DNA of 64,000 bases from Candidatus Moanibacter sp. GTDB lineage: Bacteria; Verrucomicrobiota; Verrucomicrobiia; Opitutales; UBA2987. Positions 11,038-55,413 of this stretch are shown one piece after another (position 1 is the stretch's first letter; every line of letters begins with the position of its first letter). The notes under the pieces are model-generated. The model was not told the DNA's origin, did no database searches, and saw only the letters and a program-made list of their open reading frames with translations. The position numbers and the translations under genes are program-made. The stretch lies in the NCBI GenBank assembly GCA_965215885.1, contig CBDCEW010000095.1, forward strand, positions 32,001 through 96,000, read 5' to 3'.

Positions 11038-11038
<1 letters not shown>
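10763..11038. repeat. 34-bp inverted repeat (10763-10796 / 11005-11038) enclosing nested GGGGTCA/TGACCCC palindromes
   Basis: The two arms are reverse complements with one mismatch. Confidence 0.85.
11001..11029 (+). promoter_or_regulatory. Probable sigma70 promoter of ssrA
   Basis: TAGTCA-N17-TATAAT, 8 nt upstream of the tmRNA 5' end. Confidence 0.55.
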
Positions 11039-11394
<356 letters not shown>

Positions 11395-11459
11395 TTAGGC
11401 TAGTATTTATGCGGGTATGGCTTAAATTTGCAGAATTAAATCTGCAAATTTCAAAAGTC

Positions 11460-12728
11460 ATGTCCAAGCATCGTTTCAAAATCTCTCCTTTCACGAATCC
11501 CTCCGGCGGCAAAGCTTACCGCGTGTCGGGCACGCTGGATGGCAAGAGCATCCGCAAGAATTTCAAGACGCGATCCGATGCGGTCGCGTATCGTCAGGAG
11601 CTGGAAATTCAGTTCCTCCAAGGAGAGTCCGAAGGACAGACCGTCTGGACCACCCTGACGCATGATCAAAATCGCGACGCGATTGCGGCGGTCAATCTGC
11701 TGAAAGAGTCGAACTCGAGGAAGTCGTTGACCTTCGCCGTCAAATACTTCCTCGACCATTACAAGGAAGCTGCCGAAACGATGGCGGTTGAAGCTGCCGT
11801 GGAGGAATATACCGATGAGAGGTCCCGGGAGTTTGAGCGCGGGATCATTTCCCGTCGCCAGGAGCGGGCCATCAGCATCGAGATGGACAACCTCAAGGAT
11901 TACTTCGCGGGACGGATTGTCGGGGAAATCCGTGGCGATGAACTACGGGAATACCTGGACAAAACGCGGGGCCGGTCGAAGGCGGTGCCATCCCTGAAGA
12001 CCTGGAACAACCGGCGCGGTTACCTGAGCACCTTCTTCAAATACTGCCTCGCCAAGAAATACGTCGCCGAGAATCCGATCCTCGATGTGCCTCAATTCAA
12101 GGTGAAGAAAGCCCGCGGAACGGCGGCGACGCTGTCCGCTGCGGAAGCGAAGGAATTCATGTACTGGCTGGAGACCTATCGCGGGAAGCAGAACAAGGAC
12201 GGCTCGTGGTGGGGCCGACCGGGCTGCATGGTGCCCTACTTCGCACTCACGCTGTTCGCCGGCATCCGGCCCGACTTCAAAGACGGCGAGATCGGGAAGC
12301 TGCGCCCGCAGGACATCCGCTTCGATACCGACGTGATCCTGATCGAACCAGAAATTTCCAAAGTCAACGAGAAGCGCACGATCAAGCTCCAGCCGAATCT
12401 CCGCCGCTGGCTGGAGAAATACCCGATCAGGGATTATCCGATCATTCCGCGCCGCATGCGCGACCTCTGGGTCGATGTCCGCAAGGGGCGTAACCTCCCG
12501 TATGACGTAATGCGGCACACTTTCATTTCGATGACGGTCGGGGCCTTCCGGTCGGTCGGTGACACGGCCCTGCAGGCGGGCAACTCGGAAGCTGTAAGCC
12601 GCAAGCACTACCTCGACCTCAAGAGTGTCGAGGAAGCAGACGAGTTCTGGAAGATCGTCCCGAAGGGCGAGGAACTGCCGCCGATGGAGAAGAAGGACGG
12701 GCGATACCTGCTGCCCAAGAATCTTTGA
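11460..12728 (+). CDS. Tyrosine integrase
   Basis: FAGIRP (R), KVNEKR, MRHTFIS (RH), GNS and HY catalytic motifs; adjacent to attL. Start moved to 11460, outside the tmRNA. Confidence 0.9.
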   Translation: MSKHRFKISPFTNPSGGKAYRVSGTLDGKSIRKNFKTRSDAVAYRQELEIQFLQGESEGQTVWTTLTHDQNRDAIAAVNLLKESNSRKSLTFAVKYFLDHYKEAAETMAVEAAVEEYTDERSREFERGIISRRQERAISIEMDNLKDYFAGRIVGEIRGDELREYLDKTRGRSKAVPSLKTWNNRRGYLSTFFKYCLAKKYVAENPILDVPQFKVKKARGTAATLSAAEAKEFMYWLETYRGKQNKDGSWWGRPGCMVPYFALTLFAGIRPDFKDGEIGKLRPQDIRFDTDVILIEPEISKVNEKRTIKLQPNLRRWLEKYPIRDYPIIPRRMRDLWVDVRKGRNLPYDVMRHTFISMTVGAFRSVGDTALQAGNSEAVSRKHYLDLKSVEEADEFWKIVPKGEELPPMEKKDGRYLLPKNL

Positions 12729-12931
12729 TTCGGTGGTCGAGGGGGCCCGGAACTCTGAGATTTTTGAGACAAATATTATTATAAAATTGTCCTAAAAATA
12801 GGGAATTATATACTTAAGTAACCACGGCGGGGCGGGTTAAATATTGAGAATTATATCGTTGACTCCACACTCATGATTGACGCCAAATTGACAACGGTCT
12901 AGGTTGCTGCCTCGAAAAGGATGCCGAAGAC

Positions 12932-14476
12932 ATGAAGCCGAACTGGAAAAACCGGACTCTGTTCCACGGCGATAATCTTGATTTCATGCGGGCGATGAAC
13001 AGCGGGTCCGTCGACCTCATAGCCACGGGACCCGCCATTCAACAAGGGGCGAGACTTCCACGCCACTCCGGATAGCCTCGCCGCTGGTGCGAAGTTCCAC
13101 GCCCGATGGTCATGGGAACAGGATGTGCATCAGGATTGGATCGACCAGATAACGGACGACCATCCAAACGTGATGAACGTCGTGCAGGGTTCGCGTTCAA
13201 GCTACGGCGACGACATGGCCGCGTTCCTTTGCTTCATGGCTGTTCGTCTGTTGGCTATGCATAGGGTATTGAAGTCCACGGGAAGCATCTATCTGCATTG
13301 CGACCCGACCGCTTCCCATTATTTGAAGGGACTGATGGATGCCATTTTCGGAAGGAGGAATTTTCGGAACGAGGTGATCTGGAAACGGACTTCCAGCCAC
13401 AATCGAGCAAAGCGGTGGGGACCAATTCACGGCATTTTGTTGTTTTATTCCAAGGGGCGGAAACTCACATGGAATCGCGTCCTGCAACCGCTGGAGAGCG
13501 ACTACGTGGAGTCGTTCTACCGATATACGGATGATAGGGGACGCTACGGGGTCGACAATCTTCTTGGTCCGGGACCACGGACGGGGGATACCGGAATGCC
13601 GTGGCGAGGGACCGACCCGATGGAAAAGGGAAGGCATTGGGAAGTTCCACCGGACAGGGCGATGCCTGACTGGTTCGTTTTCCCGGAGAATTACGCCGAG
13701 CTTAGCGCGAGGAAGAGGCTGGACTTGCTCGACGAACAAGGGCTGATCTACTGGCCGAGAAAGGAAGGCGGAGTCCCGCGATACAAAAGGTATTTCGGCA
13801 GCCACAGCGGCTCGCCCGTTCAGGATATGATTCTCGACATAAAGCCTCTCTCCAAAGGGTCCACGGAGAGAATAGGCTATCCCACTCAAAAGCCTCTGGC
13901 ACTGTATGAAAGGATAATCAAGACCACGTCTAATTCCGGAGACATGGTTCTCGACCCTTTCGCGGGATGCGCCACTACATGCGTCGCCGCCCAGCGTTTA
14001 GGACGCCAATGGGTAGGCATCGACATCTGGGACAAGGCGCATGAAACGGTCATTGACGATTGCAGAAGGAAGGTTTCGCTGGGCCGGACGGAAGCATAGG
14101 AGAGGCGTTGCCTCTATACGGCAAAATCCACTACTCGACCGAACCTCCCGAGCGCACAGACAACGGGGACACGGCGGCACCTTTCCTTCGGGTCAAGGTA
14201 CGTATCAAGGAGCCCGAAGACAAGAAGATGAGTCGGAAGGAGATGTACGAGCATCTGTTGGACCAGCACGGCATGAGGTGCCAAGGCTGCTATAGGACTT
14301 TCGACGACCCGCGCTATCTTAAACTCGACCACAACACGCCGCGTTCCGACGGCGGCATCAACCACATCACCAACAGGATTTTGTTGTGCGGCCCATGCAA
14401 TCTCGCCAAGAGCAATATCTACACTCTGAGCGGATTGCGGAAATTGAATGAAAAGAACGGGTGGATAGCGAAGTGA
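12932..14476 (+). pseudogene. N6/N4 DNA methyltransferase-HNH endonuclease fusion with two frameshifts
   Basis: GDNL..VDLIAT/DPPF broken by an extra G at ~13027; YPTQKP and DPFAGCATT motifs; second shift at ~14058 into CQGC..LDHNTPRSDGG..N..LCGPCN (HNH). Confidence 0.8.
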
Positions 14477-23411: not shown

Positions 23412-24380
23412 TTACACCGAGATGCGCTCGACGATATTGCGGGTGACCCGCCTGCGTCTGCGGTCATAGAGCTGGGTCGTTTGGGGATTGGAGTGCCCAG
23501 CCAAGTACTGCACGTCCTCCATGGGCACGTTCTGGCCCAGCAGATCGGTGACCACCATCACCCGGAAACTGTGAGGGGCAATGATCTGGGGCAACCCTGC
23601 CTCCTTGAGCCTCCGCTTGAGCATCCGGCGCACCCCGTGCGCCGTCATGGCTCGATCGAGGAGCCCCAACCCCCACCTGTCCGCCGCTAGAAACAACGGC
23701 GTCGCCTTTAGCGACAAGTCGATTCGGCCCGCTTCCAAGTAGGCGGCGATCCACTCGTCCAAGTCATGCCGCACCGGAATCTCGCGCTGCTTGCCTCCCT
23801 TTTCCCGGAACCGCAAGACCCGCTGCGTCTCCTGCTCTTGCAGGTCCCCACGTCGTAGCCGCGCCAGGGCTCCCACCCGAGCCCCGGTGTAGGTCAGCAC
23901 CCCCAGCACGGCCCGATCCCGCAGCCCCACGACGTGAGAGAGGTCCAGGGAGCCAAGCAAAGCCCGCGCCTGACCGGGGGCCAGCTCGGGCGTCTTGCCG
24001 TCCACGACGGCGTGCTTCCGCCCCCGCACGGAGGAAAACGGGTTCAGAGCCACCACATGGCGCGTCACCAGGGCGTCGAAAAAATGCCGCAGAGCGGCCA
24101 GCGCCAGATTCTTGGTGGGGTCCGATCCGGGCAACTCCTCAATAAAGCGCCCGGCCAGGCCCGGCGTGACCTGACGGAGCTCGATGCCCTGTTCTTCGCA
24201 CCAGAGGAGAAAGCGCCCCACGGGGCGGGCATAGGCGCGGCGGGTGTGGGGGTTGGATATCTTGGCCGAGAAGAACTCATCGGCGGCAAACAGCGCGTTT
24301 CTGCCCGCCCGATGAAGGATGGCGGGGAAGGTTTCGGACAACGCGGCGGTGCGAGGAACAAGTCCGTTCATATATAGCAC
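23412..24380 (-). CDS. Tyrosine recombinase/resolvase (XerD-like)
   Basis: RDRAVL..YTGARV, EKGGKQR, HSFR, LAGHS..TTQLY. Confidence 0.92.
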   Translation of the reverse strand: MLYMNGLVPRTAALSETFPAILHRAGRNALFAADEFFSAKISNPHTRRAYARPVGRFLLWCEEQGIELRQVTPGLAGRFIEELPGSDPTKNLALAALRHFFDALVTRHVVALNPFSSVRGRKHAVVDGKTPELAPGQARALLGSLDLSHVVGLRDRAVLGVLTYTGARVGALARLRRGDLQEQETQRVLRFREKGGKQREIPVRHDLDEWIAAYLEAGRIDLSLKATPLFLAADRWGLGLLDRAMTAHGVRRMLKRRLKEAGLPQIIAPHSFRVMVVTDLLGQNVPMEDVQYLAGHSNPQTTQLYDRRRRRVTRNIVERISV

Positions 24381-27152: not shown

Positions 27153-27330
27153 TCAACAAAGCCGTTCCTTTTTCGCATAGATGCGGCAGATGTCATCGGG
27201 AGAAATCCGGAATTTGGTCCCGTGGTTTCTTAGTCCCTTGCTTCCCGGCTTGGCCTCTCTGGCGTCAAAATCAATTTTCACCGTTCCGGCTACGACTTCC
27301 CAAATAAAGAAACTCAATTGCAGATTCTCG
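27153..27330 (-). pseudogene. MvaI/BcnI-like restriction endonuclease C-terminal fragment
   Basis: KIDFDAR..RNHGTKFRI resembles the family C-terminus; next to an IS1595-type end at ~27136. Confidence 0.45.
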
Positions 27331-27339
27331 AAACAGTCC

Positions 27340-27875
27340 GCTCGCTCATAGACGATCTCTTGTCCGGCCATCCCCGCCATGTTCCACCGGACCTCGAACT
27401 CATCCAGATATCGCTGCAGATGCTTCCAAGTGAAGTGGTGAAAGACCCCGTAATAGCCGCGTTTGAGCAAGGCCCAAAACGACTCGATTCCATTGGTGTG
27501 AACCTTTCCCCGCACATATTCACCGATTGAATGCTTCACGTGGTCATGTTCATATTGCGATTTGAGGCCGGCATATGCCGCGTTTTTGTCTGTGTAGACC
27601 GAAGATCAGGGGATTACATGTTGAGTGATAAAACCGCACAATTCAGTGCGATCTGTTCTTGCTACGCCTTGGACCTTAACCCGCCCATCCCGCGATCTCG
27701 CACCCACTACAGCTTGCTTACCGACCGGGCCCCGTCCCAAATTTAGCTTCTTATCGAAGTGCTTGTTGCTCTCTTTCCCACCAAGATATGCTTCATCAAC
27801 TTCGACTTCCTGATCGAATGGCAATTCATGGGAGTTGATCCCTCCGGCTACTTCGCGGATTCGTCCTAGCATGAC
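27340..27875 (-). mobile_element. IS1595-family transposase pseudogene
   Basis: VEVDEAYLGGKESNKH, VHTNGIESFWALLKRG and KHLQRYLDEF spread across shifted frames. Confidence 0.85.
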
Positions 27876-33884: not shown

Positions 33885-34430
33885 ATGCCAACAAAAACAG
33901 AAAGTCCACCGGTAAAAAATCGTGATGCAAAGGAACTCGAATTTCAAGGCTTAAAGGGGAAAAGGTTTCGATTGTTTTCGATGAGCCGGAATTAACTTCT
34001 GATGCGGGGCTCTTGGCGATAGCGGAACTTGAAAAATCGCTTGGATGGATTGAGAAGCTCGCTGGATGTATCAGCGATCGACGGATTGGTCCGATCCATA
34101 GTATCGTAGCATTGCTGAGCCAACGGATCTATCAGATCATCGGCGGCTATCCGGATGCGAATGACTGCGACCGAATGCGAAATGATGGGACTGTGCAGAC
34201 GATCAGCGGAGGGGAGCAGCAACTGGCGAGCCAGCCGACAATGTCGCGGCTGGAAAACAGGGTGAAGGCCAAAGATCTGGTGCGGCTGGCCTATGGGATA
34301 GGAGAGATCTTCCTGGACAGCTTCGAGAAGGCGCCCCGCATGATCGTGATCGACATGGATCCGACCGCGCACCTGGTCTACGGGCAGCAGCAACTGGGAT
34401 TGTTCAACACCCATGTGGGCGACACCTGCC
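33885..34430 (+). mobile_element. IS1380-family transposase 5' fragment
   Basis: LTSDAGLL, QRIYQIIGGYPDANDCD, LASQPTMSRLEN, IDMDPT; frameshifted and truncated. Confidence 0.85.
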
Positions 34431-34853
34431 TAAATTGCTTATCTTCCCAGGATTTGTAGTCTCCGTGGCGTGGATTAACTGTGATTTCGTTCTTCATTTC
34501 ACAAAAATGGCTCGCCTGCCCTATTCCTTTCCCGAATTTCGCGGATAAAAGACTTGAGGCCTCTCATACGGTTTACAGAAAACGAAGAGAATTTACTTTG
34601 ACCCCCCCCCTACTCCTCTGCTCTGGCTAGCTACGTCCAACCATTCAGCCTTAAGTTTTTCCTTCATCTTTTCCAGAGGTTTGATAAGGAGGCGCAAGGA
34701 TGCCGATTCAGCGGGGTCCTTGGCAATGGCGGCCTCTACTAAGCCGATAGCGACCCTGTTTTCTTCTAACCGGTCGTTTATCCGTCCAAGGCTCATCACT
34801 CTTTCTGCTTCGCTCCCGACGCTCCAAGGAAACGTTCGCTCTATCTCATCTAA

Positions 34854-36806: not shown

Positions 36807-37952
36807 TTATGAATTCAGGGATTCTCCTTTTTTGGTGAGTTTGTAGCCGTCCTTGCCGGTGCGGAAGTAGTCCTCCTTCTTCCCCTTGAGCAGGATGCGC
36901 TGAAGCGATCGTTTGGAGCCGGAATCCTCTCCGCCAAGAGCGGCATGGATCTCGCCGATTTTCTTCGGCCCGTCGGCAAGAGTTTCAGCGGCCTCGGCAA
37001 TGGAGAAATTCGCATTGGACCGCTTGCCCTCAACGTCGTCTTTCCAGGCATTGAGATGGAAGTTCGGATCGATATCATAGAGCATCGTCTCCTCGTTCAA
37101 CTTGAGGCCCACCGGGTCGAAGGGTTTGGCGTCGTTCGACTTGCCGCAGGAAACGACGATGCGGGAATGGTCGTCGGGATCTGCGGGAGCGATGTTGATT
37201 TGGGACCGCGCTCCCGAGTAGAGGGCCTTGGAACCCAAAGCGAAGTTTCCCTTGTCCCACCCTACTGCTTGGGCGATGTTTTGCCGCCCGGTGCGTCCGT
37301 GGTGAACGATGATGATGGCAGTGGTCGGATCGAAGAGGCGGCAAACCTTGGTCAGTTCACGCAAGGTCTGCCGGACATCGACGTCCTTGTTGATGTCGCC
37401 GACATTTACCTCGCCGAACGGATCGACATAGATGCAGTTCGGTTGAGTCGACTCGATCGTGTCCTGCCACTTCTTTCGGATGTCGTCGGAGCCGAGATTG
37501 ATGAAAGCATCGTCAATCTCCCAGACAACATGGAAGAAGACATGGGCATCGACCAAGGCCTTTTGATTAGGTGTGAGCGCGGCGGTCATTTTCAGGTAGT
37601 CGGATTTCTGACGGTAGATACTGTTCTCGGTGCCGATCAGGAGATGGCGCAGTGGCTCCGGGTGCGTAGGCATTCCGGCGACGGGCCAGCCCATGACTTG
37701 CGAAATGGCCGTCTGCATAACGATCCGGCTCTTGCCGGTGCCACCCTGCCCGATGAGCGTGGTGAGTTGCCCGAGCGCGATCACGCCATCGCCCAGGACG
37801 TTGACCTTCGGCGGGACCGATACGCTACGGAGTTGCGCGCCCGAAAGCACGGTGAAGGGCTTCGGTGCGGGATGGGTTTGATTTTCGATGGCGTGGAAGT
37901 CGGGATCTTCGATTTCCCGCCAGAGATCGGTAAGATTCCGCGATGCAGTCAT
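36807..37952 (-). CDS. RepA/AAA_25 (SF4-like) helicase
   Basis: GQGGTGKS Walker A, IYVDP Walker B, IVHHGR, GS..L...AR. Confidence 0.85.
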   Translation of the reverse strand: MTASRNLTDLWREIEDPDFHAIENQTHPAPKPFTVLSGAQLRSVSVPPKVNVLGDGVIALGQLTTLIGQGGTGKSRIVMQTAISQVMGWPVAGMPTHPEPLRHLLIGTENSIYRQKSDYLKMTAALTPNQKALVDAHVFFHVVWEIDDAFINLGSDDIRKKWQDTIESTQPNCIYVDPFGEVNVGDINKDVDVRQTLRELTKVCRLFDPTTAIIIVHHGRTGRQNIAQAVGWDKGNFALGSKALYSGARSQINIAPADPDDHSRIVVSCGKSNDAKPFDPVGLKLNEETMLYDIDPNFHLNAWKDDVEGKRSNANFSIAEAAETLADGPKKIGEIHAALGGEDSGSKRSLQRILLKGKKEDYFRTGKDGYKLTKKGESLNS

Positions 37953-38810
37953 TCATGAAACGGGTTTGGATTGAAGTGGAGGACGTGTTGCGTTTCGCCG
38001 TTGTCGCGTCGGCCTCCGGGCATACGCACGAGCTTGGCCGGGTCCCAGAGGGACGAATCGGCCCCGAGGTAAACCGCGTGCCGGAAAAAGCGGAGCTTGG
38101 CATACTCGGAGATTTGCTGGACCTGGAACCAGCCGTGCAGCGACTTGCCCCCGGACCAAACGACCAGCGTCAGCGGAGTCAGTTTGGTGGACAGCGAACC
38201 AAGGATCGCGGCTTGTTCGGCAAGTGTTCCGCGGTCGAACTCGATGACCAGGTAGGTGCGCTGTTTCGTGGCGTTGTCGTGGCAACGTGCCGAGACGCGA
38301 CCTGATTGATTGAGGCCGGTCTCCGCGGTCATCGGGTTGGCGACGATGAATTGAAGCGCCGCCTCCTTGCCCCGCCATGCATCGCGGGGCTGAGTCTGCG
38401 CGGATCGGGTGTCGAGCGCGGCACAGACCAAGGGATCGCCGGGAAAAAGCCGATCGACCACCATCTCGGCGGTGACCTCCAGCGGCGTCTCGGAGAATGG
38501 AACCGGGTGATGCTTGCGCCGTTCCCATGCGGCCGGATTGAAGTCCGGCCAAGCGGGGATCCGCCGATTTCCCGGAAACCTTGGCTTTTCCGAGTAGGTC
38601 CGGGCGACGGCGCGGTCGATCTCGGGACCGAAGTCGCGGTCGTCCCAACGGGACGCAACCTTGCGAAGGAAGCTGCGGACCTTCTCCGGCGAAGCGAAAT
38701 GGCGTGCCCGCTTGGCGACGGTGAACAGCCACACGTTGCGACTGCCCTTGACCGGCGGATTGTTGAGCGCCTCGGTGAGGGCCGGTGGAAGTCCTGAAAG
38801 AATCGCCATG
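37949..38810 (-). CDS. Primase-like replication protein
   Basis: YLVIEFD, VWSGGKSLHGWF and D...LVRMPGG motifs; translationally coupled to the helicase gene. Confidence 0.7.
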
Positions 38811-38819
38811 ATCGGTGCC

Positions 38820-39790
38820 TCACTTGCAGTAGGTTTGTGTTTCGATGCCCTCGGCAGCGACGGGCAGACCTGGCATCCATGTCGGAGTCCGGGCGAGCAA
38901 ACCGGTGACAATATCGGGCGTGACTTCCGGATCCTCGGGCACTTCGCAGATTACCTCATCGTGAACGGTCCAAAGGATCCGAATTCCGGCCTGGTGGATA
39001 CGGAGCAATCCCTCGGCGAAGACATCGCGACCAGTGGCTTGGACCACGTTTACGGTGAGTTTTCCGCCATACCATTCGAAGCGGCGCCCGCCCCGCTCCG
39101 TTGCAGCGGTGATGCCGCTATCGAAAGCGTGAACGTTGAAGTAGCGGATCCCGCGACCGCTTGGCAGACGCACGAAAAAGGTATGGCCATGGCGGCTCCG
39201 CATCTGGTTTTCGAGATTCCGCCACAACCCGGTGATGCGTGGATTGGCCGCACGGAAGTCGTCTACGGTGGCCTTCGCCTCGGCGAGCGTGATTTCCAGA
39301 CCGTAGGTCTTGGCGAGGTTCTGGAAGGTTTTGGCTCCGGCACCGTAGCCGAGACCGATCACCCGGCATTTCGCCAAGAGGTAGCGACGCGGGTCCTCTT
39401 TCTTCAAGTTCGCTCCGGTGAAACCCATCGAAGTTTCCGCGTGGGCCTGATAGATCGTCAGCCCTCCACGTATTTTCTCCAGCAAGTCGAAGTCGCCCGC
39501 CATCCACGCGAGGACACGCGGCTCGATCCGGGAAAGGTCGGCGATGAGGAGCTTGTGGCCTGGTCGAGCGATCAGGCAGCGGCGCGGATCGACACCGTGA
39601 AGCGGCTCTCGGTTGAAGTTCTGGAGATTGAGGCCGGCATCCCCGGACCATCGACCGGTGGCAATCGCGCCGAAATACTTCAGCGAGAACGGGAGTGAGC
39701 CATCCGGTCGGCAACGGTCACGCATCGTCTCCAAGACCCGAAGCATACGATTCGATTTCCGCCAGTTTCGGATGTGTCGAATCCACGGAG
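38820..39790 (-). pseudogene. Family A DNA polymerase, polymerase-domain fragment
   Basis: TGRWS..NLQN, ADLSRIEPR (motif A), K...LGYG (motif B), VHDE (motif C); exonuclease and thumb N-terminus missing. Confidence 0.85.
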
Positions 39791-39846
39791 AGCGGCAAGA
39801 CGGGGGCCAGTCTCGGTGCGGGTGGTGACTTTGGACAAGTCATCGC

Positions 39847-40068
39847 TTACCGGCGTCGAGGGTTGACGGTGCAATTCTCGTCCAGCGCGGCCCGGACCTT
39901 CTCCACGTCGAAGCGGACGAAGTGGCCGATCTTGACGTAGGGAATTTTCCGCTGGGCCTGCATCTGGCGAAGCCAGCGCAAGGACGGTCGGCTCTGTTCG
40001 TCGAAAAGGGCTTCGAGGAGCCCGTTGGCGTCAACGAGTTTCGGTTGGGTGGGCAAAGGTGTTTCCAT
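39847..40068 (-). CDS. Excisionase-like HTH protein
   Basis: 73 aa; RKIPYVKIGHFVRFDVEKV. Confidence 0.7.
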   Translation of the reverse strand: METPLPTQPKLVDANGLLEALFDEQSRPSLRWLRQMQAQRKIPYVKIGHFVRFDVEKVRAALDENCTVNPRRR

Positions 40069-40297
40069 CTTCGTAATTTATTAGAGTTTGGTGAAGTCGT
40101 CGGAGTGAATCAGGAGCCAGAAGCCGGGCCTGCCCTTCTCGGACAGGCGCAGCCGTTTCGCGTCACGGAGCGTGGTGGGCCGGAGCCCGTCACCGCCCGC
40201 GCGAGGCAAGCGGTGACAGGGCGACCCGTCGGCTTTATACCAGTGCGTGGACTGGCTCTGATCTTTCTTGAGAACTGCCATGATCAGCGAACTCCGC

Positions 40298-40831
40298 TTA
40301 GAATGGGCCGTTCTCCTGCGGATCGACCGCGGGATTCCATGCCTGCTGCGGCGCAGCCGGCGGAGCGGGAGCCTGAGCTTGGGCGAAGGCTTCAAGCGGG
40401 AGCACCTGCGGCTTGAGCTGGTCGATGACCGGAGAAATGCCGACCATGTTGGCGTAGGTCTTCGTCCCCTCGCGGCTTTCCCTGTGGGCCACGGTAATCA
40501 TCGCGCCCTGGCCGCGAAGTTCGCAGTAGTCCCAACCATACTTCGGCGGATGGCCGAGCCAACTGGTCAGCAATTTGAACAGGTTGCTCTTGGGCGATCC
40601 GCTGATGCGGAACTCGAAGGTCTGGACCTTGTAGGTCTGGCCGTCCTGACCGCGGAACCCGAAAAGGAAGCGCGTAACATCGAGCTTCTCGATTTCCTGC
40701 GGGTTCTCGAATTTCGGACGATCAACACCAAACTGGTCCTGAACGTCGAGACAGGTGGCAACGAATGTGCCAGCGGGAGCGAGGGCTCCGGTGTCGAAGC
40801 CAGAGGCTTCGGGTTCTTTCATAACTGCCAT
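40298..40831 (-). CDS. Phage-type single-stranded DNA-binding protein (putative)
   Basis: APAGTFVATC..KSNL..L..W..YAN.. and an acidic/aromatic tail ENGPF. Confidence 0.6.
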   Translation of the reverse strand: MAVMKEPEASGFDTGALAPAGTFVATCLDVQDQFGVDRPKFENPQEIEKLDVTRFLFGFRGQDGQTYKVQTFEFRISGSPKSNLFKLLTSWLGHPPKYGWDYCELRGQGAMITVAHRESREGTKTYANMVGISPVIDQLKPQVLPLEAFAQAQAPAPPAAPQQAWNPAVDPQENGPF

Positions 40832-40965: not shown

Positions 40966-43089
40966 CTAACTATTTTTCACCGGATTGGGGCTTCGTGGAC
41001 GCGTGCTCCAAGAGGTCGGAACCTCGGGCTGGTATCTTAGCACGGCCCCGAGATCTATCGCATCACGGAGATGATCGGCAAAAACGCGATCATCCTTACC
41101 GATTTCCTCGATGGTTCGGTTAACGCTGTTCCGAACACTGTCGCGAAGGTTCTTCCGCTCATCCCTGGCTTTGCGGATTCTTCCGCCCAAACCAACGGCT
41201 CGACCGATTTCCTTTTCGATCACGGCTACCTCCTCCTCAAGCTCAGTCACGCGGCCGACATCATTGTTTGTCTCGGCCTCGCGCCTTTCTTCAGGGATCT
41301 CGCCTAGCCTCTCGCGGTATTTCGCTAGCGCCTTTTTATCAACCACGTCGCCAAGATCCCCCAACTGCGCTCTGTCGGTGATCGAAAAGCCCTCGGCGAT
41401 TTCCTCGGCGTCGATCTGGCCCGCCTCAACATCTTCGCAGAAACCGATATTCAGTTCTGCCGCCACATCATAAACGGAAAAGGAACGATCGGGTCGCCCG
41501 AGAAGGAACTGGAGATACTCACAACCTTTTCTGTGTTTCTGGATCAAGAGCGGCTTGCCTTTGTTGAACCGAATCTGCCAGACGTTTCCGCGCTTGTAGA
41601 AAAAGTTGGGGGGCTCTTCGTCGGTGCCGACTGCCGGCAGTGACGTAACGAATCCGGACTCGTAGACGATCCGGAGAAGTGAATCACCCGGGAGCTTGCG
41701 TGTTCGGATGTCGCCGGCGTGTCTGGCGAGCAGAATGTCGACTGCTTTACGGACCTCCCGAGCATGGCGCTTGTGTAGTTCAAAAAGCCGCTCGGCACTG
41801 CCTTGACGGTCGCCCGGCAAACAAGCCACTGCACGAAGCAACTCAGGATACTTGTCGATGAATTGAACGACGGAATCGACCTGCTCAATCTCATGGGCTC
41901 GTTCAAGATACGCAGCCGATAAAATCTTGTCGTCGTCCTTGGGCCGCTCACCGAGGAATATGTCATGCTTATAGTGGGTAGCCGGATCGTATTCTTCTGC
42001 ATCCGCTGCGACAATCGCTATGCGCCTATCGATGCATTGTGAACAAGTGCCGCAATGAGTTAGTTCCAGCCTTCGCACCCTCACGTGGGTGCAACTCACC
42101 GAGGTTGTGATTACTTCGGGAATCCCGGCCTCAACTATCAACCTGATGACATCCGCTTTCGTTTTCCAGAGGAAGGGATTCTCAACGGTGAACTGCTCGT
42201 CTGAGAGCAGCGTGAAAAGTTCCTGAAACCCCTCAATAACGCGGGGGTGCGTCGTTCGGGTGGCACGGCTCCCGATCACCTGAGCGCAGATTGGCAGATT
42301 CAGGCTGACGACTCCGTTCTCGTAAAAGCGAATACTGTTCAGGCCAAGCATCTTGGCAATGGTTGCACCGAAGCAGGCAAAAAGGAAAGAGCGGGTTCTC
42401 TGGGTATACTCTCGGGCGCGAGAGTTTCTCTTGCTTGCCCGGACACCGAGATGAATCGGTGCGAGACGGTCGCCAGCCTCTTGACTCAAGGCATCGTGCA
42501 ACTTCCGCAAAATTGTGTTGTTCTTGGTCGTTGGCTTGTGCGTTACCAAAACGACCTTGCGGCGCTGGCGAATCACCTCATCGACGGCTCCACCAAGTGA
42601 ATCGAGACCACCGGAAAACAGGATGACCTGTTCCGGTGGCGCGGAATTTTGTGGGTTTTCATCAAATTTGAGGTAAGTCTGAAAAGCAGGCGGATTCGCC
42701 GCTTGAACGAATTTGAAGGTGAACCGGTCGTCGGACAGGAAGCCGAGTAAACCGGAAAGACACTCGATGACTTCCGGCCTTTTCCAGACCTTCAGTTCGC
42801 GCACTGGAACGTGGAATGTGAAGTTGCGCCGCCAAGCGCCTCCGAAGCTGTCAACGTCTTGGTTGGTGCGCCTGATCAGTTGGTCGGCGCAGTAAACGTA
42901 GACGGCGATTTCAACCAGGTCATGGAGCTGGCTCGGGATTTTTCGAAGTAAACGTTCGTCGATGTCCTCGATGCGCAGAACAACATTCTCGTCTTCATCA
43001 CCGCCCCAGAGATTGAGGTTGATTTCTTTATCGGGGCCGTTGCCTGGCTTGGTCTTTTCACCGCAGTAAATGGAAAAGTCACGATGCAT
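40966..43089 (-). CDS. QueC-family (QatC-like) PP-loop enzyme with ~215-aa C-terminal extension
   Basis: LFSGGLDS, QRTRSFLF, YENG..SLN, TRTTHP, NPFLWKTK, SC..HCGTCSQCIDRR. Confidence 0.88.
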   Translation of the reverse strand: MHRDFSIYCGEKTKPGNGPDKEINLNLWGGDEDENVVLRIEDIDERLLRKIPSQLHDLVEIAVYVYCADQLIRRTNQDVDSFGGAWRRNFTFHVPVRELKVWKRPEVIECLSGLLGFLSDDRFTFKFVQAANPPAFQTYLKFDENPQNSAPPEQVILFSGGLDSLGGAVDEVIRQRRKVVLVTHKPTTKNNTILRKLHDALSQEAGDRLAPIHLGVRASKRNSRAREYTQRTRSFLFACFGATIAKMLGLNSIRFYENGVVSLNLPICAQVIGSRATRTTHPRVIEGFQELFTLLSDEQFTVENPFLWKTKADVIRLIVEAGIPEVITTSVSCTHVRVRRLELTHCGTCSQCIDRRIAIVAADAEEYDPATHYKHDIFLGERPKDDDKILSAAYLERAHEIEQVDSVVQFIDKYPELLRAVACLPGDRQGSAERLFELHKRHAREVRKAVDILLARHAGDIRTRKLPGDSLLRIVYESGFVTSLPAVGTDEEPPNFFYKRGNVWQIRFNKGKPLLIQKHRKGCEYLQFLLGRPDRSFSVYDVAAELNIGFCEDVEAGQIDAEEIAEGFSITDRAQLGDLGDVVDKKALAKYRERLGEIPEERREAETNNDVGRVTELEEEVAVIEKEIGRAVGLGGRIRKARDERKNLRDSVRNSVNRTIEEIGKDDRVFADHLRDAIDLGAVLRYQPEVPTSWSTRPRSPNPVKNS

Positions 43090-43867
43090 CAGGCTCAGCT
43101 CTTTTCTTCATTTCGGAGCGCATTTTCTCCATTGCAACCCGACCGAAGTCCTTCGATTTCTGTTTCGAGATGTGTCCGTTGTTCTCGTAGTGAATCTTGG
43201 AAAACCAATCAGCGCTGAAACGTTGAACGATCTTGGACGCCTCGCGGCAATGCGTCTCCAAGGCTTTCTTGAACTGAGCAACCTGGTTCATTGTGGCGAA
43301 CCGCTGGCCTTCTCCGATCTGAGTGCCGATGGTTTTGGATAGGAAGTAGTCGAGAGACCTGTTGGTCAGGTTGCTGAAGAAGGAACGCGACAACCGACCG
43401 AAGGCCGCAGGTTTTCCCAGATCGGCCAAGGCTGTCTCTAACTCATGTGCGGATAGCGTAAGCAGCGTGCCGTAACGGTCGTTCAGTTGTTCGATCACAG
43501 CAGAGACAAGCGCATTCTGCGCCAGCTCTCCAAAATCCGAGCTTTTCCCCTCAGCTGATACACCCTTGTCGAGCGCTGATACGATAGCGAGCGCAACATC
43601 GGTGAGTGTGGTATGGTCGGAGAGCTTGATTCCGAGCGCCTCAAAATGAGCGACTGGATCGTCAGACCTGGCAGCTACCGCTAACTGAGTCATTAGGTCA
43701 ACGGACTCCGCGAAACCACGGTCATTCTGGATTACCGCGAACGCCTTGTCGGCGGCCTGCATCGTTGCACCGGCCACCTTAGACACATCCGCACCGTCAG
43801 CGATGTAGCGGACGATTTCTTTCCACGCCCGAGTCTGCGGGAGCGTTCCTAGTCTTACGTGGCCCAT
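43079..43867 (-). CDS. Helical partner protein of the QueC-like enzyme (QatB-like position)
   Basis: 262 aa, begins MGHVRLGTLP, overlaps the QueC-like gene by 11 bp. Confidence 0.7.
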   Translation of the reverse strand: MGHVRLGTLPQTRAWKEIVRYIADGADVSKVAGATMQAADKAFAVIQNDRGFAESVDLMTQLAVAARSDDPVAHFEALGIKLSDHTTLTDVALAIVSALDKGVSAEGKSSDFGELAQNALVSAVIEQLNDRYGTLLTLSAHELETALADLGKPAAFGRLSRSFFSNLTNRSLDYFLSKTIGTQIGEGQRFATMNQVAQFKKALETHCREASKIVQRFSADWFSKIHYENNGHISKQKSKDFGRVAMEKMRSEMKKRAEPDAS

Positions 43868-44399
43868 GAATGGTGATGCGGGCGCTCTGTCCCTCCATAA
43901 ACATCAAACTTCCGCTTGAAGCCTTGTCAAAGCGTTTAACTTGCTTAGAGGCGTTATGATGATGAACTTCGGGGATGTCGGTCGGATGCTTTTTGAGCGG
44001 CAAGAGTTCAGTGGGAGGTGTGTCACCCGCTACCTCGAAGTGAAGTCGATGTCGGTTGCCTTCGAGAACGACGTCGAGTTCGTCCTCAAGGAAGCGAAAC
44101 TGAACTACGAGAAGCATTTCCGCGTCGATCCATTCATCTGTGACTTCATCCTGACGTTAGACCGACGACGCTTCGCCATTGACTGCAAATATAACGTCAA
44201 CCGCGACTGTAACCGCACCTAAGTGGCTGTGAAGCTCCTGCGGGAGAAGGGAGCAACCTTTCAGGCGCATCAATCGAACTGAGCAACAAGAGGTCTCCCA
44301 TCTCCGGAACCTGGTCGCGAAAGAGACGCGCGAGGGCAGGCCCGGAATCTGGCTGTCACAGAGCCCAAGGTATGCCGTCAATGCGGCCTCGCTCCCCAG

Positions 44400-46271
44400 C
44401 GGCCTGACAAGATCGAGCAGGAAAAGGGCCTCAAGCGGTGGGCGCGATCAAGCTTCTGGCTGGATGACCGCTACACGACCAACGCCGAAGAAAAGCTGCC
44501 GGAAACATGGGTACCGGGAAATCGGCCAAACCTTAACCAGATGCACGCGAAAGCGGCTGCGGAGATCGACAGGGACGTTGTGAAGGCACCTCTGATCGAC
44601 GAAATCGGCAGAGCAAAGGAATTGACCCGTGGCGCATCGACAAGCGGAGTGCGGACCCACACCCTGCCATACAAGCCGAAGGACGTGGAGGATGACGGCG
44701 AGTTTCACTATGTCATCCTCGGCCCAGACGCGGCCTCCGAATCGGGCAAGCCAAGCCCGGAGGCAACACGCTTCCTCAACGAAACAACGAGCTCGGAGAA
44801 ACCTCGTGTCTTCCGCAATGCCGTGATCCTGCTGACTCCAACCAAAGACGGTGTCGAGCTCGCCAGGAATGCGATCCGCGACTACCTCGCTTGGGAGCAG
44901 GTCCGCACTGAACTCAAGGATGAGGAAGACGGTGGCCAGGTCGATGTGGCGCGGATGCAGACGCTGCTAATTCGGGTGAGAGAATCGCAGGGCAAAATCG
45001 CCAACGCGATCTATCAGGCCTACAGCACGGTTGTCACCGTAACCGAGAAGAACGAAATTCAGGCGTTCAGGATTTCCATCAGCGACGATCCCCATTTCCA
45101 GATCGTCAAGAACGACCAACGCTCACGCATCAAGGACAGTGCCATCAACGCGGAGTCACTGTTGCCGGGCGGCCCCTACGACTTGTGGACCGATGGCCAG
45201 ACGGCGAAACGCGTCAAGGATCTCACGGGCGCATTCGCGCAATTGCCGCGTCTCCCGAAGATGCTCAAGGCAGAGACGATTCTCGATACGCTGGTCGACG
45301 GATGCCGGCAGGGAGCATTCGTCTTGAAACTGACCCGCCCCGACGGGTCGAAGCGGACATGGTGGTTGAGCGAACCGGATGAAAACGCGCGGAAGGACGC
45401 GGCCCTGGATCTCGTTCTTCCCGAGTCGGTGGATTTGGCGGAAATCGACCCAGCCTTGGTCGCCAAAGACGGCTTGGCCGGACTCTGGACAAGCGACGAG
45501 ATCACCGTCCAGGACGCGCTCGCCTACTTCGAGGGAGGCAAAGTCGTCCAGATGAAGAAGGGCGACTATGAAGAGCCAATGATGATCCCAAAGGCCGGGA
45601 AAGCGGTCGTCCAGGAGGCGGTGAAACAGGCCGTGCAAAAGGGCAAGGTCTGGCTGGTTTCCGGGCCGACGAGCATTTATGGTGAGGAGGTTGCTCCGGG
45701 TATTCTCACGGCTGGTGCAGTGCTGTTGCCGCCACCTGAACCAGTAAGCGTCACCGAGATTCTACCCGAAGTGATTCCTGACGTATGGACGAATGTAGAG
45801 ACGACCGCCCTCGCGATTGCGACCGCGCTCTCGCAAAAGGCTGGCAAGACGCTCCCGTGGAAGACCGTGGCCGATGTGATCAACCAAGCAATCAACAATC
45901 GCTACCTGATACTGTCGGAAGACTCCGGCCAGTGGCCCTGCGACTTCTCGGGCGCTGGCAAGGTTGCATTAGAAGAGGCCAAGCAGGAGCCCATTAAGCC
46001 AGATGAAGTCCATGAAGGATCTTCAGGGCGAATCGCTGCCGTGTCGGTAACGTGTGAAGAAGCCCAAGCCCTTCTCGACGCCTTGGCCTATGAGGCCATC
46101 CCAGCTCTGCTGGAGATCAAAGCGAAAACGAGAATCGGGGTGAAGGTGACCGTTGGAATCGAACACGACCCGGAAACGAGCGAGATGACCGAGGAGGCTG
46201 CCGGAGAGATCGGAGACGCCGCAAAGTCGGCGTCCGATGATTTCAGGATTCTCTTCGAACAGAAAAACTAA
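44400..46271 (+). pseudogene. DUF499-type AAA+ ATPase, C-terminal half
   Basis: FWLDD..W..GNRPNL.QMH, PRVFRNAVILL, FAQLPRLPKML; no Walker A, so the N-terminus is lost. Confidence 0.6.
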
Positions 46272-46446: not shown

Positions 46447-46564
46447 GGCTTCGACACTCGCTGCGCTCCTGTCGAAGCCTGTCACGGCGTAGAGCGCGCA
46501 GCGCCCGAAGCCGGACCGAATCAAAATGAAGAAATCGAGCGCTCCCACTACGCCCTGGCAAGCC

Positions 46565-46819
46565 ATGAAAACAGAAAAGTTTCATTACGTTTATATTCTC
46601 GTTTCCGAACAGAACCACCGACAGCATTACACCGGAATCACGGACGACTTGAAAACCCGCCTGCAGAAACACAATGAAGGTGGAACTCCACACACCGAGA
46701 AGTATCGACCATGGAAGATCGAGACAGCAATCGCCTTCACATCCCGTTCTAAAGCAGTTGCTTTTGAAAAACATCTAAAGACCCACTCCGGCCGATCTTT
46801 CGCCCGAAGGCATTTCTAA
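46565..46819 (+). CDS. Short GIY-YIG nuclease
   Basis: YVYIL..HYTG.T.DL..RL..HN.G..AFEKHLKTHSGR. Confidence 0.9.
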   Translation: MKTEKFHYVYILVSEQNHRQHYTGITDDLKTRLQKHNEGGTPHTEKYRPWKIETAIAFTSRSKAVAFEKHLKTHSGRSFARRHF

Positions 46820-53604: not shown

Positions 53605-55413
53605 GCGCGTTTAAAGGTTGAACAGGAAACTTCGTTATTCCTAACGTTATTTGCCATGCTGGCGGTAGTTTTGCCGCCGCCACCCTTGGGCTGGTTTCAT
53701 GTTTTGCTTTTTTTGAGTCATATCCGTTCTGTTTTAACGTTAGTTCTGTCCCCTTTTTGGGATACGCCGACAGTCCTTCCGTTGTGGCTGTGCGTTCGCG
53801 GTTACTTGATCTGCTACCCAGGCGACATAGATCGGAATCGCTCCCAGGTGCTGATAAAATCTCCCATCCACTCGTTCCAGCTTAAAAGCCGATAAACAAT
53901 TCGGCGCCCGCTTCGGATGATTTGCGCGGGGAGCAAGATGATGGCGTGAAGGAAGCGCCGAAACTCCATCTTCACGATCTCCAACCCCCGCTGGCGGTTG
54001 GGCATGAGTAATCCATACCACGCCTTCAGGTTCCAGGCCAATGCTGTCATTACCATATAGGCCCAATTGCTCAAAAGATCATCCACGGGCATACGCATCG
54101 CATTAACCCCGTTTTTGAGTTGCTCAATAACGTTCTCCTGATCGCAGCGTTGATTCGCAAAGGCGACCACCTGCTCCTTAGTCAGGTCCCTACGATTTGT
54201 GATATAAAAAAAGTAGCGGATCTCATCAAAGAGCACTACTTCGCCCTTTTGCACACTGATGTTCTTACGCACCACCACCATCCGATAGGTCTTTTTGCAC
54301 TTGTTGGGCCGATAGTCCAACTCGGCCACACTTTCTGCCTCCAGCACCTTGTTTTCAAAACCCTTCTGGTGCACGATCCCTTCCTTCACTCGCGGCGCTT
54401 TAGCTCTCGATTCGGTCGCTATTTCATGCTTGGGCAACCGCTCCAGTTCGCTCCAGGCCGTCTCTCTGAACTCCTCGGCCAGTCCCACCACTTTGGGATG
54501 CGCATCCATTCCGAAGATAAATCCCGTTCCTTCTTCATCCCACCGATCGAAGTTTTCTGTCAACGAAAAGTCCGTATCCCCTCGCAAGCAGATTTTCCCC
54601 GCATGCGCACGCACAAGTTCCACCGCCCGATCAATCCACTTTACGCATCCCTCATGGCTAGTCTCATTGCCCGGTCGATTCACCATGTAGAGCACTTCCC
54701 TGGTATTTGCCAAACTCACGATCAGCGGTGCATAGCCCCAGATCCCCTTATAGCTTATTCCCATACCCCCTTTGCACTTCCCTCTCGTCTGCGCTATCGT
54801 CCCGTCCACATCGATGAACGCCTCCTCCATGAATCCTTTTGCCTGCTTGTTCCACACCCCTTGCCGTATCCGGTTGATCCCTTCCATCAATTTTTCGATC
54901 GCGCCTTCATCAAAGCGTCGGGTGAAGTCTCCACTGGTCGTCGGATCCGGTATCCTCTGCGCTCCTAAGGCATTCAGAAAAACCTCGTCCTTGCGGCGCA
55001 ATTCGATGTCTTCGAGCCGGATCCCTCCCAATAATGCGTTGTAGGCTATGTTGAGCACATGATCACTCTCATGATACGGCAGGTGGCGCTTGAGCAACTG
55101 CACGCTCTGGTCGAGCTCTTCCACCAACCCCAGTCTCTTCACCATCAGGTGAATCGCTCCTATCCCTCCACAACTCACCCCTTTGCCTCGTTCGGCCGTC
55201 TCGTAGTGGATGTTGCTCGCTTTGAACATCGGTTTGGCCTGTTCAGGCCAGCCCCGATTTCTAAGCCGATGCTTTATTCTTCTCTTGCTATTGTGGAGGT
55301 TCTTGCGGTATCTTCTTTTCACTCGAAACGTCCTTTTTTTCTGGGTGGTTTTTTTGGTCGATTAACAGTTTTCCCAGTATCTAAGCGCGTTTCGAGCTTT
55401 TTATTGCGTTAGG
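53594..55413 (-). mobile_element. IS1380-family element, transposase 53814-55322
   Basis: PDPTT.GDF.RR, IDVDGT, LRGDTDF, QRCDQENVIEQLK; ends CCTAA../..TTAGG with CTAG at the left junction. Boundaries approximate. Confidence 0.88.

Follow-up and report, generated by a model that had tools for sequence, protein, structure and literature searches.

QatABCD, a four-gene anti-phage system reportedly described by Gao et al. in 2020, holds the closest described counterparts of a gene pair that we examine here in Candidatus Moanibacter sp., a member of the Verrucomicrobiota. The pair encodes a 262-amino-acid (aa) helical protein and a 707-aa enzyme and lies in a 64,000-nucleotide (nt) stretch of contig CBDCEW010000095.1 (assembly GCA_965215885.1, positions 32,001 to 96,000), hereafter the window, whose own numbering we use throughout. 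Structures of the QatB-QatC core have been solved (9vlk, 9zee; PMC13279940, PMC13376578, PMC13639016), and the QatBC crystal structures show a core loop and C-terminal helices holding QatB, with an N-terminal loop in the cleft (PMC13279940, PMC13376578). QatBC alone suffices against some phages, lambda-vir among them, and needs Gly2 of QatB, behind which stand conserved P16 and W18; the N-terminal tail of QatB comprises 30-90 disordered residues (PMC13279940). QatC has Thr/Thr in place of the base-reading Tyr/Asp of QueC, and two groups did not reconstitute its reaction and obtained no activity with 7-carboxy-7-deazaguanine (CDG) (PMC13279940, PMC13639016). Reports of how often qatA and qatD accompany qatC run from about 34% (PMC13329287) to 'essentially all' (PMC13434339); qatBC alone is not among the seven qat gene combinations listed in the latter.

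We consider it likely that the pair is a natural two-gene anti-phage module of the QatBC kind, carried as cargo on a partly decayed, integrated phage-like element. As the initial annotation had stated, the two open reading frames (ORFs), both on the minus strand, are intact and overlapping in the ORF list of the window. The partner gene (43079..43867) encodes an all-helical product with an M-G-H N-terminus (MGHVRLGTLPQT...), which we propose as the substrate of the enzyme and the counterpart of QatB. The product of the enzyme gene (40966..43089) is a PP-loop ATP pyrophosphatase of the QatC type whose C-terminus is greatly extended. The partner's stop codon and the enzyme's start codon overlap by 11 nt (43079..43089, minus strand, ATGCATCGTGA), an arrangement that recurs in 107 of 147 pairs across the loci surveyed below and, judged from the sequence, suggests translational coupling. 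Because the partner's ATG is the first start codon past an upstream in-frame stop, a longer form is impossible and the Met-Gly start is dictated by the sequence.

The enzyme is homologous to QatC. It matches the PADLOC QatC model (PDLC02214) with E 7.8e-57 over residues 53-376, the NCBIfam QatC model (NF041925) with E 1e-62 and 212.3 bits, the solved E. coli QatC chain 9vlk_A with E 1.9e-29, and PHROG 1550, 'QueC-like'. Residues 1-150 (42640..43089, minus strand) form a QatC-type N-terminal extension with a D..R..WRR motif in which D78, D80, W86, R87 and R88 are invariant columns. Residues 151-377 (41959..42639, minus strand), delimited by alignment to solved QatC and by invariant columns, form a QueC-like core containing SGGLDS (159-164), RTRSFLF (231-237), ENG (257-259), the loop 264-279, T277-R-T279-T-H-P and the zinc cysteines C333, C346, C349 and C352. 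SGGLDS, R.RSF.F, ENG, TRTTHP and HCG.C..C..RR all align with 9vlk_A, and the same alignment places the Thr-x-Thr typical of QatC where QueC has Tyr/Asp. Residues 378-480 (41650..41958, minus strand) are predicted helices that would cradle the body of the partner and, in the model, correspond to the QatB-binding helices of canonical QatC. Across 20 family members (alignment A1), S159-S164, R231, R233, F235, E257, G259, H281 and P282 are invariant, as are D78/D80...W86 R87 R88, P305...T310 K311, C333, C346, C349, C352, R355 and R356. The SGGxDS loop and the QatC-specific motifs of PMC13329287 (D..R..WxR, RxRxxxF, ExG, HP, P(x)4TK and an altered Cys motif with RR at its end) are all there, every element falling on invariant columns of A1. 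The motifs that the initial annotation had listed as intact (SGGLDS, RSFLF, ENG, RTTHP and the Cys cluster) were all found, and are invariant in these 20 relatives.

In the partner, the start-Gly-His N-terminus is invariant across the loci: among 154 partner ORFs, the N-terminus is readable in 146 and reads (start)-Gly-His in 146 of 146, the first residue having been written M whatever the codon, hence '(start)'; the other 8 are truncated. Where a longer upstream frame exists (24 partner ORFs), the aligned position is a real internal ATG-Gly-His. The wider family comprises 1094 representatives of 50%-identity clusters at E<=1e-3, mostly about 260 aa long and aligned from residue 1; the 132 near-full-length sequences among 150 listed representatives begin MG (125), VG (4), LG (1), LP (1) and MD (1). 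A 72-sequence alignment has invariant G2, W15, A38, G185, F199 and W221, with H3 and P10 nearly so, bearing out the Gly2 conservation on which the earlier proposal depended. The AlphaFold2 model of the partner (predicted local distance difference test (pLDDT) 92.6) has 12 helices, the first starting at residue 13, and a free N-terminal tail of about 12 residues; low pLDDT is confined to the first 10. Its sequence has no Pfam, PADLOC, PHROG, NCBIfam or PDB match.

The partner shares with QatB an all-helical build, a length of about 260-290 aa and an essential or invariant Gly2 followed by conserved Pro and Trp, P10/W15 of the partner paralleling P16/W18 of QatB. It differs in starting MGH rather than MGTS (alignment A3 and PMC13279940), in its tail of about 12 rather than 30-90 residues and in having no QatB hidden Markov model (HMM) match. 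The control loci, canonical Qat loci of the same phylum (QatB models match in 6 of 401 genomes), encode a QatB starting MGTS and a QatC of about 454 aa. In hhalign, the partner alignment A2 and the QatB alignment A3 (47 sequences) pair t-D-l-g-E-m-A..A..E-t of the partner with I-D-E-g-I-A-R-D-A..E-t of QatB, and in an ESM Atlas search the cluster ranked 16th (score 0.88) has PF28083 on 15% of its members, which we take as a lead only. On our reading, the partner is probably homologous to QatB and most likely a very diverged counterpart of it.

Co-folding of partner and enzyme from their two alignments gave an interaction prediction score from aligned errors (ipSAE) of 0.85 in each of three runs, against 0.00 for the best control; the mark applied to this score is reached by 116 of 157 solved complexes and by 2 of 215 mismatched pairs. 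The runs have at least 80% of contacts in common, with a partner pLDDT of at least 85. The confident interface joins partner residues 1-8 and 10-12 to enzyme residues 76-87, 113-122, 229, 260-279, 334 and 350-354, the enzyme side of which is formed by the conserved motifs around the cleft; the body of the partner (87-129, 170-197) sits on the enzyme loop 267-273 and on helices 385-432 and 468-477. The lowest-error pairs fall at enzyme residues 411-421, and no enzyme residue past 477 takes part. This predicted layout is that of the QatBC structures. The model thus places the partner N-terminus against the enzyme's conserved cleft motifs, as the initial annotation had anticipated, and the partner probably binds the enzyme with its N-terminus entering the cleft.

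The pair is real, occurs widely and has gone unannotated. When the enzyme was searched against 5.8 billion proteins, 3684 of the 8000 candidates scored had E<=1e-3. Of the best 120, nearly all have a length of about 700 aa (outliers 814 and 631 aa) and 119 span 96% or more of the query; source names of the relatives include Burkholderia, Ralstonia, Geobacter, Hydrogenophaga and Rhodanobacter. Pattern matches encode an enzyme relative in 244 of 253 cases in species-representative genomes and in 92 of 106 on IMG/VR viral contigs, where the gene is often near a contig end. The search of 50,697 phage records and 72,556 plasmids returned no full-length enzyme relative, only canonical QatC-like cores. 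Among the plasmid matches, hypothetical QatC-like genes of Leptospira noguchii (H3, NZ_CP091938.1; E 1e-46) and a Rhodobacteraceae member (H9, CP049029.1; E 4e-42) are closer to the window enzyme than the genes annotated as qatC and may, by sequence, be further variants.

For locus counts we kept 80 of the 244 genome relatives and 80 of the 92 viral relatives; with many loci near-identical, the counts do not stand for independent events. In 78 of the 80 genome loci, a homologue of the partner is encoded immediately upstream in the same orientation. In one of the remaining two, L002, the contig edge cuts the locus; the other, L011, truly lacks the partner, its enzyme gene (L011:3777-5897) having no upstream partner detectable by tblastn at E<=1e-3. 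The viral loci have the partner in 76 of 80 cases (75 by HMM and L146 by tblastn), and in the remaining 4 the enzyme lies at most 300 nt from the contig edge, which cuts the locus. The two-gene layout recurs across many phyla. A genome of another genus in the host family (G406) carries the pair as well, again with a 707-aa enzyme and with a partner cluster 94% identical. Since relatives of the enzyme are annotated as '7-cyano-7-deazaguanine synthase' and those of the partner as 'hypothetical protein', the family is missed by defence-system finders and by genome annotation. We found no description of it in the literature searched; the search did not cover the supplementary neighbourhood tables (cluster 2) of PMC13329287, which may hold its members.

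What sets the enzyme apart from QatC, to which it is about 30% identical, is a further C-terminal region of about 250 aa. At 707 aa, with relatives of about 700 or about 615-650 aa, it compares with about 400-460 aa for canonical QatC, and the extra residues are conserved in relatives (A1, including the last 330 residues). The initial annotation was right about the QueC motifs and overlooked this region, which resembles a winged helix. We modelled residues 375-707 from 39 sequences (pLDDT 77.7). After the partner-binding helices, the model has three short strands and two helices (496-555), then a low-confidence acidic stretch and a coiled coil of two helices (585-631). A long helix of basic character spans 641-666, and one more helix and a hairpin follow. 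Residues 493-555 (41425..41613, minus strand), with beta strands and helices, would form the first half of an OmpR/PhoB-like winged helix, and residues 641-690 (41020..41169, minus strand), with the conserved basic helix (R645, K646, D650, R653 and R658) and a beta hairpin, the second. Between them lies an insertion, residues 556-640 (41170..41424, minus strand), predicted as a low-confidence acidic linker followed by the coiled-coil hairpin (in model numbering, pLDDT below 50 at 192-208 and helices at 211-233 and 237-257) and absent in variants of about 620 aa.

Foldseek gave nothing at E<=0.001 for this model and returned weak OmpR-family rows only, whereas with an aligner independent of Foldseek OmpR/PhoB-type DNA-binding domains ranked top (GlnR, CssR, BaeR, AdeR, CadC, ArlR, CpxR, VicR, VanR, KdpE, ToxR, PhoP, PrrA, PmrA, OmpR and TcpP). 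Compared with the winged helices of GlnR (8hml_B), BaeR (4b09_A) and CadC (5ju7_A), the enzyme domain is split by about 85 aa, and the protein has neither a receiver domain nor a significant sequence match to OmpR/PhoB proteins. From the fold resemblance we infer an OmpR/PhoB-like winged helix, split by a coiled coil, that may bind DNA. A second enzyme sub-type, on viral contigs L150-L171, is about 615-650 aa long and has the same MGH partner; it has residues 1 to about 485 in common with the window enzyme, then a shorter tail that lacks the insertion and ends in an invariant G-Y-R..N. The G-Y-R-L-N-P tail end of these shorter variants presumably resembles the OmpR-family C-terminal hairpin; the short tails have no significant match among Pfam and PDB profiles.

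The pair stands without qatA and qatD, in line with the initial annotation, which had recognised no KAP-NTPase (qatA), TatD (qatD), queD, TGT or CD-NTase gene in the window: Pfam scans of 47 window ORFs found nothing like KAP NTPase, TatD, PTPS/QueD, TGT or CD-NTase. In the host assembly (105 contigs, 90.3% complete), neither KAP_NTPase nor QatD nor any of three QatB models finds a match. Around the relatives, 461 ORFs of at least 140 aa within 5 kb fall into 265 clusters, and none of the 107 cluster representatives scanned carries KAP_NTPase or TatD. The window and neighbour scans found no que genes nearby.

Relatives of the pair are carried on mobile elements and predicted proviruses. A large serine recombinase is the neighbour seen most often (38 of 80 loci), with DUF2924, and genes for an SNase homologue, AAA_24, DUF669, RecD2-like, Prim-Pol and PolA proteins also occur nearby; other loci have type I restriction, GmrSD, BrxL, Cas3, SIR2-DUF4020 or methylase genes. 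In the window, the downstream flank (36807..40831, minus strand) is a remnant of the carrier element with replication-initiation-like, excisionase-like, truncated PolA, primase-like and AAA_25 helicase genes, syntenic with L002 and L003. Measured against these two loci, the window has three internal deletions: of the 625-aa PolA only residues 302-625 remain, a gene of 270-285 aa is reduced to its first 32-46 residues, and the replication-initiation-like gene retains 149 of 220. Neither the primase-like nor the AAA_25 gene is shortened. The earlier description of a heavily decayed island is partly true. G406 has an intact PolA and, upstream, a split HmaC-like ORF. An intact pair on an eroding carrier is in keeping with selection acting on the pair.

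Upstream, a 673-nt spacer (43868..44540) separates the pair from a divergent 576-aa ORF and is likely its promoter region; a promoter and terminator scan gave one sigma-70-like minus-strand match, no more than shuffles give. The divergent ORF (44541-46271, plus strand) matches positions 545-769 of the 941-position PADLOC model of HmaC, an AAA+ ATPase, and may, by this match, be a 5'-truncated defence gene; the syntenic HmaC-like gene of G406 (L091) is in pieces of 343 and 183 aa. Just past the HmaC-like fragment lies a 97-aa stand-alone GIY-YIG nuclease-domain ORF (46526-46819, plus strand). Elsewhere in the window, a tmRNA gene (11038-11392) is followed by a 456-aa ORF (11358-12728), related to two integrase-like genes beside the pair in L001, and by genes for a DNA methylase (13125-14099) and an HNH endonuclease (14060-14476); this tract (11038-14476) looks like an island inserted at ssrA. 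The window also contains a 148-aa DDE_Tnp_1_4 transposase fragment (34013-34459) together with an intact member of that family of 502 aa (53814-55322), an IS1595-type fragment (27153-27539) and a tyrosine integrase gene (23412-24380). The region is a mosaic of mobile-element pieces.

The pair most likely works like QatBC. The 707-aa protein would be a QatC-type ATP-dependent ligase, built of the N-terminal extension, the QueC core with its zinc site and the partner-binding helices, and the 262-aa helical protein its dedicated substrate. Removal of the initiator Met would let the free amine of Gly2 reach the active-site cleft, where, at the expense of ATP, an activated acyl or adenylyl group would be attached to it. 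Once modified, the complex would restrict phage. The fused DNA-binding-like domain plausibly replaces the sensing or targeting that DNA-binding QatA and/or QatD provide in four-gene systems. Enzyme and QatC have in common the N-terminal extension, the PP-loop core, Thr-x-Thr-His-Pro, the zinc cysteines, the long loop 264-279 and the partner-binding helices, and in both cases the substrate gene lies directly upstream of the enzyme gene.

Several results pull the other way. The 212.3 bits of the enzyme lie under the NCBI equivalog cut-off for QatC of 280 bits, which a canonical QatC control (L084) exceeds with 483.4 bits. The partner has no match at E<=10 to the PADLOC QatB models (PDLC02211-02213), none to the NCBIfam model NF041924, on which a canonical QatB control scores 159 bits (cut-off 100), and none in a sequence search against the solved QatB chains; the fold libraries searched, up to 2026-04-08, list no QatB chain. 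Pfam PF28083 is found on 120 of 120 listed canonical QatB relatives and on 0 of 120 listed partner relatives, on which no Pfam family was found at all. Judged by such sequence comparisons, the partner is not a member of the QatB family as currently defined, and the profile similarity detected by hhalign (probability 48%, E 1.8e-4, 152 columns) is only borderline. The co-fold does not single out the residue that meets the PP-loop, and since QatBC structures exist, its high score may in part reflect them. The carrier element is in decay, and the window copy may lack its substrate if that substrate is CDG. The defence role of the family is suggested by homology and context.

The pair could instead serve the mobile element, as a DNA-binding regulator of lysogeny, excision or replication or as an excluder of competitors, with partner modification as the switch. 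It adjoins recombinase or integrase and phage-type replication genes in many loci, 92 relatives lie in predicted viral contigs, often near a contig end, and the C-terminal domain as modelled resembles transcription-factor DNA-binding domains. However, the edge of a prophage, beside an integrase, is also a typical place for defence cargo. In the window and in G406 the pair has stayed intact despite the deletion of replication genes of the element, which fits a benefit to the host better; other loci have no element genes nearby but restriction-modification (R-M), bacteriophage exclusion (BREX), Cas3 or SIR2 genes; and the nearest characterised relatives are defence proteins. We therefore regard service to the element as unlikely. 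Much less probable still is that the pair is a remnant of a four-gene QatABCD minus qatA and qatD, or a non-functional relic, as the decayed island, the lack of queC and queD in the host and the truncated HmaC-like ORF next door might suggest. We rejected the broken-Qat reading on the recurrence of the two-gene layout (78 of 80 genome loci, viral contigs, many phyla), the enzyme's own conserved 250-aa extension and the partner's own conserved MGH motif; moreover, both ORFs are intact and near-identical in a second genus (partner cluster 94%, enzyme 707 aa), and canonical QatB and QatC are clearly apart by score. That the enzyme is a true QueC of preQ0 (7-cyano-7-deazaguanine) or queuosine metabolism with an unrelated neighbour is extremely improbable: the public annotation of its relatives and a Pfam QueC match (E 7.4e-9) point that way, but TIGR00364 gives 30.6 bits against a cut-off of 150.3 and covers residues 285-355 only, the zinc-ribbon end; Thr-x-Thr replaces the base-reading Tyr/Asp (PMC13279940); no que genes lie nearby; and canonical QatC fails to complement a queC deletion (PMC13329287). 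With canonical QueC (TIGR00364, PF06508 cluster 1) the enzyme shares the PP-loop ATP pyrophosphatase fold and the Cys4 zinc site; it differs in its replaced substrate-binding motifs, its threefold length and the lack of a que operon.

A different question is which group is attached. The initial annotation cited this QueC type as reported to attach a deazaguanine base, which is not established even for canonical QatC (PMC13279940, PMC13639016). The host assembly has no QueC above the cut-off and no PTPS/QueD, QueE not having been searched; QueC above the cut-off is found in 0 of 9 host-family genomes (G000, G401-G408) and in 10 of 31 relatives overall, and QueD in 0 of 5 host-family genomes, two of them 96-98% complete. 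In a control genome (L003), queC and queD lie side by side. The host lineage thus seems to lack de novo preQ0 synthesis, as far as the QueC and QueD searches go, which argues against host CDG as the attached group and fits the published doubts on the QatC substrate. All five other carriers of the module examined have QueC, so the module does not track the host deazaguanine pathway. Intact copies in a bacterial family without queC and queD open the reading, to our minds rather improbable, of an immune switch that is self-contained, works by protein conjugation and attaches something other than host-made CDG. The enzyme would then put a different carboxylate, or AMP itself, on Gly2, or use a 7-deazaguanine precursor brought by the phage, so that substrate supply would be the infection signal; on both variants, the winged-helix domain fused to the enzyme would couple the reaction to DNA.

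Type IV cyclic-oligonucleotide-based antiphage signalling systems (CBASS), for which Cap9-CD-NTase deazaguanylation has been described (bioRxiv 10.1101/2025.04.06.647259), offer a parallel, in that Cap9 too is a QueC-family enzyme acting on the N-terminal Gly of an adjacently encoded partner. Cap9 is about 185 aa long, has canonical QueC substrate motifs and modifies a CD-NTase, whereas the window enzyme has 707 aa and QatC-type motifs; Cap10 (TGT-like) and effector genes accompany Cap9 and are absent at the window pair. No CD-NTase-type nucleotidyltransferase was found among the window ORFs or the neighbours scanned.

Returning to the two-gene QatBC-kind module, the earlier proposal of a new minimal conjugation system holds in so far as the pair is stand-alone, is no broken QatABCD and has an invariant Gly2. 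Since QatBC alone is already published as sufficient for defence, the pair is less new than proposed, and the different output suggested for it is hypothetical. The three structural papers neither reconstituted the QatC reaction nor explained how modified QatB arrests a phage. The two-gene family would offer a simpler natural version of Qat, in which a tail of about 12 residues takes the place of a long disordered one. Its fused DNA-binding-like domain hints at the role of the missing QatA and QatD, and its presence in hosts without queC and queD would offer a direct way to learn what the first substrate is.

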